DNA of 6,988 nucleotides. It comes from Escherichia coli. Lineage in GTDB: Bacteria > Pseudomonadota > Gammaproteobacteria > Enterobacterales > Enterobacteriaceae. The notes beneath the pieces were generated by a model. That model did no database searches. It was not told the DNA's origin and saw nothing but the letters and a program-made list of their open reading frames with translations. The stretch lies in assembly GCF_024298765.1 (NCBI RefSeq), contig NZ_CP101214.1; one strand, given 5' to 3'. The first letter of the stretch is position 1, and every line of letters begins with the position of its first letter. The position numbers and the translations under genes are program-made. Shown here piece by piece: positions 752-4,784 of the stretch.

Positions 752-1174
752 TTACTGTCTGCCCTCGTATCCATCGAGATAAACCGCAGAAATGGTGTCT
801 GCCATTAGTTTCATTTTTTTCGGCGAAGGCATATCGCTGTTTGTGTATTTTCTGCCAGCAAAGGCTGTTGTGCTCCGGAGTGAGTGAAAAAATTTTTCTG
901 AGTGGAATTCTTTTACACGTTGCTGTGCCGTTTCTGCTGATACTCCGGCTGCTTTGTCTTTCATCCCCATATCCCGGAACTGCTGAAAGAACGGGAGCAT
1001 CATACGTATGGTGTCTGCTTTCTGGGTGTAGAAGTTAGGATCAAATCCATCATCTGAAGCATAAACATAATGCCGGGTATGTCGTTCCAGGCTGGTCTTT
1101 GGTGTGCATCCTGTAAGAGCTATTGTTGCTGTTATCAGAGGTATCAGAAGCAGCCTGGCAGCGGCAGATTTCAT
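752..1174 (-). CDS. Small lipoprotein of unknown function (about 140 aa; possibly an entry-exclusion-type lipoprotein)
   Basis: ORF on the minus strand. AAGGAG lies 6 nt upstream of the second ATG (1174); the first ATG (1180) abuts the SD. N-terminus MKSAAARLLLIPLITATIALTGC has a basic n-region, a hydrophobic core and an L-T-G-C lipobox (signal peptidase II type). Thr at +2 suggests outer-membrane sorting. Confidence 0.65.
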   Translation of the reverse strand: MKSAAARLLLIPLITATIALTGCTPKTSLERHTRHYVYASDDGFDPNFYTQKADTIRMMLPFFQQFRDMGMKDKAAGVSAETAQQRVKEFHSEKFFHSLRSTTAFAGRKYTNSDMPSPKKMKLMADTISAVYLDGYEGRQ

Positions 1175-1295
1175 AAACATCTCCTTGCGTTTTTAATCTT
1201 GATACTCAGGGAGTTATATCTCCGAAGAGTATCTCTTATCATACGTCGGTTTACTCCCAATGTGATTTGATGGTCAATGAGTCAGGAATAATCCC

Positions 1296-1574
1296 GTGAA
1301 AAAATGTGTGCCAGTCCTGCTTTTTAGTGTTCTTTCTGCTTCGGTTGCCAGTCATGCGGACAGCAATGTTTTTCAACAAAAGGCCGAGAAGACAAAAAAC
1401 GGCATTGTTGCGGATGTTAATGCCAGACAGAAAATGTTCAGTAACAGACTGAAGATACAACTTCAGATCGATGAGTTGAGAGCAGAGCTGGCTGGCACCA
1501 GAGATGCCCAAAAAAGAGAGGATTTGCGTAAAAAACTGGAGTCTCTGGAGCGGCAAAAGAAATCCTTACGCTGA
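1296..1574 (+). CDS. Small Sec-secreted, highly charged coiled-coil protein of unknown function (92 aa precursor)
   Basis: GTG start at 1296 with AGGA 8 nt upstream. N-terminus MKKCVPVLLFSVLSASVASHA-DS is a typical signal peptide (KK n-region, hydrophobic core, S-H-A cleavage motif). Mature part is Lys/Glu/Arg/Gln-rich and predicted helical. TGA at 1572-1574. Confidence 0.5.
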   Translation: MKKCVPVLLFSVLSASVASHADSNVFQQKAEKTKNGIVADVNARQKMFSNRLKIQLQIDELRAELAGTRDAQKREDLRKKLESLERQKKSLR

Positions 1575-1856
1575 TGGGGGCGTATTTTCCCCGGTTTCTT
1601 CCATAACCTTTTTACCGTTCAGATATTTACGGGCGAGGCGAATGCGTCTTGCCTGGTATACCGCCGAGTAAGCCTGGGTGGGATTCACACCATTACTGAT
1701 TTCACTGACCACATGACGCTGATCAGCCAGTGTCAGCGTGTAAACCTGTTTCTGGATGAGGTCACGGGCTTTGTCATGCTCATATCCGGCAGCAACAAGG
1801 GTGTCGAGAAGTCGTTTGTCTGTTTTGTTCAGTTTATGGCGGGGTGATTTGCTCAC
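1566..1856 (-). CDS. Small basic protein with a putative helix-turn-helix (candidate DNA-binding regulator), unknown function
   Basis: Minus-strand ORF. Best start is GTG at 1856 with GGAG 6 nt upstream (the track's longer ORF starts at an in-frame TTG at 1883). 96 aa. The segment HVVSEISNGVNPTQAYSAVYQARRIRLARKY looks like helix-turn-helix. Converges on the 1296-1574 gene with a 9-bp overlap. Confidence 0.5.
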   Translation of the reverse strand: MSKSPRHKLNKTDKRLLDTLVAAGYEHDKARDLIQKQVYTLTLADQRHVVSEISNGVNPTQAYSAVYQARRIRLARKYLNGKKVMEETGENTPPSA

Positions 1857-2095: not shown

Positions 2096-3742
2096 ATGGC
2101 TAAAGAACTAAGTGGATATGGACCAACTGCTGGTGAGTCTATGGGGGGAACAGGGGCGAATCTGAATCAGCAAGGTGGAAATAATAATAGTAATAGTGGG
2201 GTTCACTGGGGTGGTGGCTCTGGGCATGGTAATAATGGTGGTCAGGGAAATTCAAATTCATCTGGTTCTACATCAACTGTGATGAAAACCGGTGAGTCAT
2301 ATCTGACTCCGTGGGGTGATGTTGTCATTAATAATGATGGCCTTCCGGTGATGAATGGTATTGTTATGACAGAAGAGAATTCAACTCTGGTTGATAATCC
2401 ATTTGGAGGGGTCTCCAGAGTTCTTAATTCTTTAATTAGTGATATGCCATCACTTTTTGCAGAAAGCTCAGGAAATAACAACAATAACACTGCTTCAGTT
2501 AATACTGCACCAACGAATGCTCAGGTCAGTGATATGGATAAGAGTTCGAAGGTGGTGGGTAATGTAATTAATGAAAAACAAAAGCAGAAGAATAAAATTG
2601 CTACACAGATTAGTGAAAAACAGAAGAAAATCGAGGAGATGAAAAAAGTATTCAAGCATCATTCTTATCATGGTATCACTGATCTTGAGAGGGATGTTGA
2701 TGAGTTGCAAAAAAAATCAAATCAGCTTGATGCAGATATTAGCAAACTTAATTCTTATAAAAATACATTGCAAAGTAAAATTGGTGATGTGAATAAACAG
2801 AAGGAAGCTGAAGAAAAGGTTCGTGAAAATGCAGAGGTCGCTGAACATGAAACTCTTAATGAAGAGAAACAGGCGGTGGCGGAAGCAGAGAAGCGTTTAG
2901 CTGAGGCGAAAGCTGAACTGGCGAAGGCTGAAAGTGATGTACAGAGTAAGCAAGCTACTGTTTCCAGAGTTGCAGGAGAGCTTGAAAACGCTCAGAAGAG
3001 TGTTGACGTGAAGGTCACCGGATTTCCGGGATGGCGTGACGTTCAGAAAAAACTACAGCGTCAGCTTGAAGCTAAGCAGGCTGAGTACTCCGCAGTTGAA
3101 AATGAACTTAAGAATGCTGTTAGTTTCAGGGATGGTAAGGCCGCTGAGGTTAAAGAGGCAGAGCAGAAATTAAAAGAAGCTCAGGATGCTCTTGAAAAGA
3201 GCCAGATAAAAGATGCTGTTGATACTATGGTTGGATTTTATCAATATATAACCGAACAATATGGAGAAAAATACGCAAAAATTGCTCAGGATTTAGCGGA
3301 AAAGTCTAAAGGAAAGAAAATTCAAGGTGTTGATGAAGCTCTGGCAGCATTTGAAAAGTATAAGAATGTACTGGATAAGAAATTCAGTAAGGTTGATCGG
3401 GATGCTATTTTTAATGCGTTAGAGTCTGTTAATTATGATGAGTTATCTAAGAATTTAACGAAGATATCAAAGTCGCTTAAAATCACCAGTCGAGTATCTT
3501 TTCTATATGATGTTGGTTCTGATTTTAAAAATGCAATAGAAACTGGTAACTGGCGACCTTTGTTTGTCACGCTGGAGAAAAGTGCGGTCGATGTAGGTGT
3601 GGCAAAAATTGTGGCATTAATGTTTAGTTTTATTGTTGGTGTGCCTCTTGGTTTCTGGGGGATTGCAATTGTCACAGGTATTGTTTCTTCTTACATAGGG
3701 GATGATGAGTTGAGCAAACTTAATGAGTTGTTAGGGATTTAA
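2096..3742 (+). CDS. cka: Pore-forming colicin, most likely colicin K (548 aa)
   Basis: 548-aa ORF with a Gly/Asn/Ser-rich N-terminal domain (typical of Tol-dependent colicin translocation domains), a long charged coiled-coil central region, and a C-terminal domain with a hydrophobic helical hairpin ([35 protein letters not shown]) typical of pore-forming colicins. Length and N-terminus [15 protein letters not shown]... match my recollection of colicin K. SOS promoter upstream, immunity and lysis genes downstream. Confidence 0.85.
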
Positions 3743-4029
3743 TTTCTCTTTAGAGTGTAATATATGAAACTTGGCAATCCTACTGGGATTGCCATTAATA
3801 AATAAAACAATGCAGATAACTTGCATAAGTACCAGGGTTCTTTTTTTAACTTTGTATTTTCTTTGATATATCTAGATATGGTTAATTTAGAGTATGGATA
3901 TAGCAATACATGTATTGATGATATAAATATAAATAACAAAGGAGTGTTATCATTCTCGTTAAATATTAAAATAAGAATCCATGGTATAAGTGATTCAGGT
4001 AAATTATGTAGGTAGTATTTTAAATGCAT
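3739..4029 (-). CDS. cki: Colicin immunity protein (integral membrane, 96 aa), convergent with the colicin gene
   Basis: Minus-strand ORF immediately downstream of and opposite to the colicin gene, the arrangement typical of pore-forming colicin immunity genes. Very hydrophobic protein with several predicted TM segments ([35 protein letters not shown]). Its stop codon overlaps the colicin stop at TTAA 3739-3742. Confidence 0.85.
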
Positions 4030-4249: not shown

Positions 4250-4352
4250 ACGAAAAAACCGCCTGGGGAGGCGGTTTAGTCGAAGGTTAAGTCAGTTGGG
4301 GACTGCTTAACCGGGTAACTGGCTTTAGTGGAGCACAGATACCAAATGCTGT
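4250..4352 (-). ncRNA. RNA I antisense copy-number control RNA (about 100 nt)
   Basis: Minus-strand promoter: -35 TTGAAG (complement of 4383-4388), 18-bp spacer, -10 TACACT (complement of 4359-4364), start near 4352 (ACAGCAUUUGG...). 3' end has a hairpin, AACCGCCT / AGGCGGTT at 4257-4276, followed on the minus strand by a U-run. Fully complementary to the 5' end of RNA II. Confidence 0.8.
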
Positions 4353-4358
4353 CCTTCC

Positions 4359-4388
4359 AGTGTAGCCGCTATAAGGCTTCAACTTCAA
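4359..4388 (-). promoter_or_regulatory. RNA I promoter
   Basis: TTGAAG -35 and TACACT -10 on the minus strand with an 18-bp spacer, arranged as in pBR322 RNA I. Confidence 0.7.
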
Positions 4389-4784
4389 GAGTTCTGCGTA
4401 TCTAAATCCACTATCCAGTTACCAATGGCTGCTGCCAGTGGCGTTAAGTCGTGTCTTACCGGGTTGGACTCAAGACGATAGTTACCGGATAAGGCGCAGC
4501 GGTCGGGCTGAACGGGGGGTTCGTGCACACAGCCCAGCTTGGAGCGAACGACCTACACCGAACTGAGATACCAACAGCGTGAGCTATGAGAAAGCGCCAC
4601 GCTTCCCAAAGGGAGAAAGGCGGACAGGTATCCGGTAAGCGGCAGGGTCGGAACAGGAGAGCGCACGAGGGAGCCACCAGGGGGAAACGCCTGGTATCTT
4701 TAAGTCCTGTCGGGTTTCGCCACCTCTGACTTGAGCGTCGGTTTTTGTGATGCTCGTCAGGGGGGCGGAGCCTATGGAAAAACG

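Follow-up and report, generated by a model that had tools for sequence, protein, structure and literature searches.

We analyzed a 6,988-bp stretch of Escherichia coli DNA (contig NZ_CP101214.1), hereafter the window, by which we mean the whole stretch at its full length. The window is a complete ColE1-like colicin K plasmid, for which identical records exist, including NZ_CP120553.1. We found that a small open reading frame (ORF) of this plasmid, here called ORF92, is a functional gene whose frame is under purifying selection. The intact ORF has 92 codons and occupies positions 1296-1574 of the plus strand, from a GTG start at 1296-1298 to a TGA stop at 1572-1574, and the same coding sequence (CDS) is annotated by RefSeq as hypothetical protein WP_000710675.1. 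Its product is very probably a real exported hairpin protein, export being read from the pattern of its leader, and it belongs to an undescribed family that is limited to plasmids and prophages of Enterobacterales in all contexts examined. As an overall account we tentatively favour an exported periplasmic hairpin with a protective or exclusion role, a reading that we consider plausible but short of probable. The features of the gene and of its product, with residues numbered along the precursor, are as follows:

1284..1287, plus strand: ribosome-binding site AGGA, 8 nt 5' of the GTG start, read in the sequence.
1296..1574, plus strand: CDS of the 92-aa precursor, with GTG start and TGA stop (WP_000710675.1).
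1296..1358, plus strand: predicted signal peptide, residues 1-21, with an MKK n-region, the h-region CVPVLLFSVLSASVA and an SHA c-region.
1359..1571, plus strand: predicted mature protein of 71 aa, 8.3 kDa, isoelectric point (pI) 10.2 and net charge +7.
1359..1496, plus strand: helix 1, residues 22-67, predicted by AlphaFold2.
1416..1505, plus strand: most conserved stretch, residues 41-70, from the per-column conservation of the family alignment A2.
1506..1565, plus strand: helix 2, residues 71-90, with the leucine heptad L77, L81, L84, L91, from AlphaFold2 and the alignment.

Selection on the frame was measured in codon alignments with two diverged copies, one from an A-like colicin plasmid (L005; 83% protein identity in the multiple alignment) and one from a non-colicin context (L004; 63-64% protein identity). 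The ratio of nonsynonymous to synonymous substitution rates (dN/dS) was 0.22-0.29, with a synonymous excess significant at p = 1e-3 to 2e-7. No frame other than the sense frame stays open throughout the homologues, at identities down to 63%, and both TCAGGAAT and the GTG start are unchanged across five homologous loci, including the L004 copy at 75% DNA identity. The leader tells the same story: residues 1-21 of the ORF92 product read MKKCVPVLLFSVLSASVASHA, and the leader of the 63%-identical homologue reads MRKFVTALIIGGFSVSAHA, so that the letters have changed and the pattern has been kept, as is predicted by selection for export and not expected of a chance ORF. We found the gene in 113 PLSDB plasmid records, mostly at full length, and in 94 of 5,426 complete E. 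coli genomes (~1.7%), where all 125 places were on plasmids and none was chromosomal. Two other ways of reading this DNA were considered and rejected. A 101-aa antisense ORF (1251-1556, minus strand) that covers most of ORF92 is a shadow ORF, with four stops in the L004 homologue, and a search of Rfam for an RNA element at ORF92 gave only RNAI at 4250-4350 and chance matches.

A preliminary description of this gene, made from the sequence alone, had proposed a Sec signal peptide followed by a helical mature part of about 70 residues rich in K, E, R and Q, and both proposals were supported by our analysis, the first by the leader pattern and its conservation in the family, the second by composition and AlphaFold2 alike. 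The h-region is 15 residues long with a mean Kyte-Doolittle hydropathy of 2.0, and signal peptidase I is predicted to cut after A21, before D22. Across homologues, the leader shows a basic start, a hydrophobic core and an A-x-A cleavage site followed by D or E. A comparable leader ending in A appears in 23 of the 25 family members, alanine stands at position -1 in 96% of these 25, position -3 is S, A or V in most of them, and the residue after the predicted cut is usually D; the rest of the leader diverges. The ORF92 product has no lipobox (L-x-x-C), its sole cysteine lying at position 4, before the h-region. The mature 71 residues comprise 18 K+R, 11 D+E and 11 Q+N, include no C, W, Y or P, and have a mean hydropathy of -1.16 with no hydrophobic segment.

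AlphaFold2 (model m4c9a2f3e5d98) predicts a helix from residue 22 to 67, a three-residue turn G67-T68-R69 and a second helix from 71 to 90, with an overall mean predicted local distance difference test score (pLDDT) of 83. Averaged over blocks of ten residues, the score is 94-98 from residue 31 to residue 80, 79 in block 21-30 and 84 for the C-terminal end. The I54/I58/L61/L65 heptads, set against L77/L81/L84/L91, fit an antiparallel hairpin in which the C-terminal half of helix 1 would pair with helix 2, and the N-terminal half of helix 1 (residues ~22-47) would have no partner inside the monomer. The preliminary description had called the protein a coiled coil; it is indeed predicted to be helical, but the predicted fold is an antiparallel hairpin and not a classical parallel coiled coil. 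Its statement that the product is not a colicin, immunity or lysis protein agrees with what we found, namely no family match, no lipobox and a mature part devoid of hydrophobic segments. We rejected an immunity protein of a pore-forming colicin in view of the lack of transmembrane helices and of any Colicin_im/Cki-type match in Pfam or NCBIfam (the immunity gene cki of this plasmid lies at 3739-4029), and likewise a lipoprotein or colicin lysis protein, with no Lysis_col or Exc2-family match.

Scans of Pfam, NCBIfam, PHROGs and PADLOC with the ORF92 protein and 25 relatives gave no family match, only sub-threshold coiled-coil noise (FlxA at 11 bits, EAD9, and PcsB at 12 bits). Assignment to the FlxA-like family (PF14282) was rejected at 11.2 bits and an expectation value (E) of 0.41, against a gathering threshold of 26.3 bits. 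We built two alignments, A1 and A2, with the window protein as the first row, the latter holding the 25 family members. Their profiles returned nothing below E = 0.3 in sequence searches of the PDB, and Foldseek gave a best E of 0.79 against the PDB and 0.14 against the viral BFVD models. A word-indexed search recovered close relatives only. When 1.84 billion cluster representatives were searched exhaustively with an HMMER profile, 37 proteins were recovered, at E = 1e-46 to 8e-4, about 25 of which are distant (25-40% identity, 85-129 aa), plus one outlier of 398 aa. The hosts named for the family are Escherichia, Shigella, Salmonella, Enterobacter bugandensis and Pantoea. No match was found by tblastn of the ORF92 protein and its prophage relative P0068 against 50,697 phage genomes, or by a scan of IMG/VR, and our literature search found no description of the gene or of its accession numbers.

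The family is defined by a signal peptide, a mature part of ~70-95 aa and a motif around the hairpin turn, L.IQ[LM].ID.LR..[IM]GG[TS].D, and the ORF92 protein shows all three. Conservation within residues 41-70 centres on V41, Q45, L52, Q55, I58, D59, L61 and R62, followed by the glycine-rich turn and D70. Six of these residues (V41, Q45, L52, Q55, D59 and R62) form one stripe on helix 1 that flanks the hydrophobic seam and lies outside the seam itself. The pI is at least 9.3 in 22 of the 25 members, and none of the 25 has a cysteine in its mature part. The preliminary description had also raised the possibility of a fragment of a larger disrupted gene. Relatives of 88-132 aa with signal peptides of their own are found in other genera, plasmids and prophages, and because these relatives are of the same size or somewhat longer, each with a signal peptide, ORF92 is not a gene fragment. 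On IncF plasmids of E. coli and E. fergusonii we further observed a paralogous subfamily of 129-132 aa, whose members have an additional helical segment at the N-terminus. Its genes lie between fimbrial usher and chaperone genes (L023 7001-7390; L024 7001-7399), and in the second case a YadA-type adhesin gene follows a few kb downstream. Overall, our findings suggest that ORF92 belongs to an ordinary-looking class, that of small exported accessory proteins of mobile elements, with nothing pointing to a new kind of system.

In ColE1-like plasmids the gene has a fixed place. The order cer, exc2 (minus strand), ORF92 (plus strand), a 96-aa gene (minus strand) and the colicin operon is constant across plasmids that encode colicin K, a K-like variant, S4 or an A-like pore-former. 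The preliminary description had considered such a product unusual for a colicin plasmid, a view that our comparison corrects: ORF92 is a regular backbone gene of ColE1-like plasmids with any of these four colicins, and it also occurs without any colicin. The surroundings of the gene in the window are as follows:

752..1174, minus strand: Exc2-family lipoprotein gene, the divergent neighbour (NCBIfam NF033828, E = 4.5e-53; RefSeq).
1175..1295, no strand: intergenic region of 121 bp common to the ORF92 gene and the divergent exc2.
1566..1856, minus strand: 96-aa hypothetical gene WP_000047032.1, here ORF96 (phage family phrog_36305, E = 1e-38).
1172..1660, no strand: 489-bp segment that IncK2/Z plasmids have acquired as one block, at 96% identity (blastn against L009 and L010).

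ORF96 is convergent with ORF92, with a 9-bp overlap at the ORF92 3' end, and divergent from the SOS promoter of colicin K. It is not present beside the IncK2/Z, L004 and prophage relatives of ORF92, and in pColK-K235 it is interrupted by IS2. SOS control of ORF92 itself was rejected, with no LexA-like box nearby and the only one of the window at 2021-2036, before cka. ColE1 (L032, 4326-4995) has exc1 at the place between exc2 and the promoter of the colicin. Positions 1138-1955 of the window show no homology to ColE1, and the two versions of this slot have none in DNA or in protein. The stretch between exc2 and the colicin is a replaceable cassette, with exc1 in ColE1 and ORF92 plus ORF96 here. 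On the far side of exc2, between mbeD and exc2, lies the XerC/XerD core of cer at 719-748 on the plus strand (GGTGCGTACAA-TTAAGGGA-TTATGGTAAAT), an exact copy of that of ColE1, and there is no overlap between cer and ORF92. Elsewhere in the window, RefSeq annotates a 47-aa 'replication initiation protein' at 4385-4528 on the minus strand, inside the RNAII/origin region and next to RNAI. Since the ColE1 replicon type requires no Rep protein, this call looks like an annotation artefact.

Outside ColE1-like plasmids, the gene and its relatives turn up in a variety of places. Besides the ORF92 gene, the 489-bp unit on the IncK2/Z plasmids takes in all of the intergenic region before it and 86 bp after it, and copies of the unit sit between a resolvase gene and a Phd/Doc pair. 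On an IncF plasmid, homology to the window is confined to 1136-1598, and in L004 it is confined to 1260-1574, the latter copy lying between a histidine-kinase gene and a ParE module. A Salmonella prophage carries a relative between the Q antiterminator and HicAB genes on one side and the holin gene on the other; another contig has one immediately 5' of lambda-type terminase genes; and in prophage contigs a relative follows Q, AntA, a gene for a lipoprotein with TolA domain III and a tRNA-Met gene. Further distant members reside on plasmids with RepL, KfrA/ParA or MbeB genes. Every context that we examined is an accessory slot of a plasmid or prophage: next to exc2 in ColE1-like plasmids, in the late region of lambdoid prophages, or next to stability genes in large plasmids. 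ORF92 behaves as a stand-alone cassette with no obligatory partner gene.

We propose that ORF92 may serve exclusion or protection to the benefit of the host of the element. We regard this role as the likeliest because every context is an accessory part of a mobile element and because of the position beside exc2; as it is argued by analogy, we consider it possible, though on the unlikely side when taken by itself. The protein would be exported by Sec, cleaved behind A21 and retained in the periplasm as a soluble hairpin. There it would bind another component of the envelope through the stripe V41-Q45-L52-Q55-D59-R62 and the conserved turn, and the positive charge of the hairpin suggests that this partner could be acidic. 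Binding might keep out incoming DNA, phage or protein toxins, or might shield the envelope, in the manner of other periplasmic exclusion proteins and without relatedness to them. T4 Spackle and P1 Sim are small, signal-peptide-bearing, soluble periplasmic superinfection-exclusion proteins encoded by stand-alone genes of mobile elements. The ORF92 product shares with them its predicted type of export and its stand-alone coding, and falls in the size class of Spackle. It differs in that its family has no cysteines in the mature part and gives no sequence or fold match to solved structures. Bor and lom, the lysogenic-conversion 'moron' genes of lambdoid prophages, offer a further parallel: relatives of ORF92 likewise occupy slots between Q and the lysis cassette or just before the terminase genes, and their products appear from their leaders to be envelope-targeted. 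Here, too, the sequences are unrelated, and the ORF92 product is predicted to be soluble, and not a lipoprotein or outer-membrane protein.

A stronger version of this proposal would make the ORF92 family a new class of exclusion or immunity factors, soluble in the periplasm and encoded by enterobacterial mobile elements, in which the hairpin tip and the polar stripe dock on a machine of the host envelope and block rival plasmids, phages and colicins; we consider this rather unlikely. The docking sites that could be imagined for it, with the same low expectation, are the tip of an outer-membrane channel, Tol-Pal or TonB, and a conjugative entry route. It is similarly doubtful that plasmids of the ColK/S4 type use ORF92 in place of the product of the ColE1 exc1 slot, as this version would have it.

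Several observations weigh against the account that we favour. No neighbour is conserved across contexts, so that guilt by association is weak. When two copies of the protein were fused by a linker and modelled by AlphaFold2 as a tandem dimer, the pLDDT was 64 and the predicted template modelling score (pTM) 0.52, giving no confident oligomer. A consensus promoter scan of 1175-1295 found no plus-strand match upstream of the ORF92 gene, the sole match in this region being on the minus strand at 1266-1238, toward exc2. Directly 3' of the stop codon, a terminator consensus scan matches 1575-1593, which we rejected as an intrinsic terminator, its fold being no different from that of shuffled sequence (z = -0.09). 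Finally, ORF92 is frameshifted in pColK-K235, the reference plasmid for colicin K, the IncF copy has a premature stop, and the CDS is truncated on one IncK2/Z plasmid; several copies have thus decayed, which means that the gene is dispensable in some hosts. The pColK-K235 version (L003, NC_006881.1, 391-765) is 124 aa long and unannotated, which may be why the classical literature overlooked the gene.

The missing promoter match and the truncated or frameshifted copies are also what could be expected if ORF92 were not a functional gene at all, that is, if it were a chance or decaying ORF or if the region acted only as DNA or RNA. We hold this to be extremely unlikely, given that purifying selection acts in the sense frame only, that the start codon and the ribosome-binding site are conserved, that relatives at 25-40% identity in five genera keep a signal peptide at a similar or somewhat greater length, and that the locus has no Rfam match. 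A different alternative accepts the gene and gives it a partner, making the ORF92 product a periplasmic component of ColE1-type entry exclusion that works with Exc2 and replaces the product of the exc1 slot. The divergent arrangement with exc2 over the shared intergenic region, the order of exc2, ORF92, ORF96 and colicin that is constant with four different colicins, and the occupation of the equivalent slot of ColE1 by exc1 are all in line with it. The likeness to the exc1/exc2/mbeD region of ColE1 extends to the same plasmid region and to a product that is, judging by its leader, envelope-targeted like Exc2. Despite this, we consider the partnership improbable. Relatives, whether intact or distant, are found where exc2 is missing, on IncK2/Z plasmids, in prophages and on other plasmids, and the family is likewise found on elements that lack exc1 and mbeD. 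The ORF92 product has no sequence similarity to Exc1, Exc2 or MbeD and is predicted to be soluble, not a lipoprotein. ColE1 Exc1, moreover, starts without a hydrophobic leader, so that equivalence of the slot does not amount to equivalence of function.

The remaining alternatives start from what the protein resembles. Spy, CpxP and ZraP are small, charged, all-helical periplasmic hairpin proteins, and a leader-bearing protein of this kind, which has lysis functions nearby in colicin plasmids and in a single prophage, might be a periplasmic stress buffer or chaperone that protects the envelope of its producer, for instance while the colicin lysis protein is expressed or when a prophage lyses the cell. 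We give this only a small chance: the Pfam LTXXQ/CpxP-Spy (PF07813) and heavy-metal-resistance families are matched neither by the ORF92 protein, at E up to 1, nor by any of 25 relatives, the LTXXQ motif is not in the sequence, the gene is on mobile elements with no adjacent two-component system, and many of its contexts have no lysis genes. Less probable still is a binder or decoy of Tol-Pal that confers tolerance to Tol-dependent colicins and filamentous phages. One copy in IMG is labelled 'TolA-binding protein', a distant relative lies downstream of the lipoprotein gene with 63% identity to TolA domain III, and the neighbouring colicins include K, S4 and A-like, all of which are Tol-dependent. 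We rejected the IMG label itself: against K-12 CpoB (YbgF), BLASTP gave E = 0.2 and hhalign a probability of 0.5%, and there was no PF16331 match at E up to 1. The ORF92 protein and the N-terminal coiled coil of CpoB have in common a periplasmic helical segment and a short resemblance (QLQIDELR versus QSDIDSLR) that is probably the source of the label, but the ORF92 protein ends after the hairpin, with no tetratricopeptide repeat domain, and the coil of CpoB is trimeric and parallel, not a hairpin. The tRNA-Met gene separates the TolA-like gene from the ORF92 relative, the pairing is seen in one lineage only, and most contexts hold nothing related to Tol. The lipoprotein is an observation in its own right: it is a 133-aa protein with the lipobox LSGC, encoded in prophage-like contigs (L014 3517-3918; also L015 and L016), its last 100 residues share 63% identity with domain III of TolA from E. 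coli K-12, and it could itself be a TolA decoy.

We find it very improbable that ORF92 encodes a secreted or surface-active accessory of virulence or adhesion, a helical hairpin working like FadA. Such a function would suit the 129-132-aa subfamily of IncF plasmids, which has fimbrial operons on either side and a YadA adhesin gene close by, as well as another relative that adjoins a YadA-type gene, and FadA is among the weak Foldseek matches. The FadA match, however, has a probability of 0.11-0.16 and an E of ~3, nearby genes encode no means of crossing the outer membrane, and adhesin genes are missing from the ColE1-like and prophage contexts. Among the closest known systems we also count the alpha-hairpins of periplasmic adaptors (EmrA, LipC) and the coiled coil of EnvC; in a periplasmic adaptor the alpha-hairpin is flanked by lipoyl and beta-barrel domains, and these flanking domains are not found in the ORF92 protein.

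Few replicons have been studied as thoroughly as the small ColE1-like colicin plasmids, and ORF92 is a conserved backbone gene of theirs for which we found no name, family or literature. Its relatives extend to Salmonella prophages and to large plasmids on which fimbrial and adhesin genes are also present. With 71 residues, solubility and freedom from cysteines, the mature protein should be easy to study. Should ORF92 have only a minor effect on fitness, the result would still be a cleaner annotation, that of a family of exported helical hairpins, in place of 'hypothetical' or the unsupported 'TolA-binding protein'. If the role in exclusion or protection is true, ORF92 would add a simple and testable player to the competition among plasmids, phages and colicins in the gut, and would help to explain why the exc1 slot of ColE1 is replaced in the ColK/S4 lineage.

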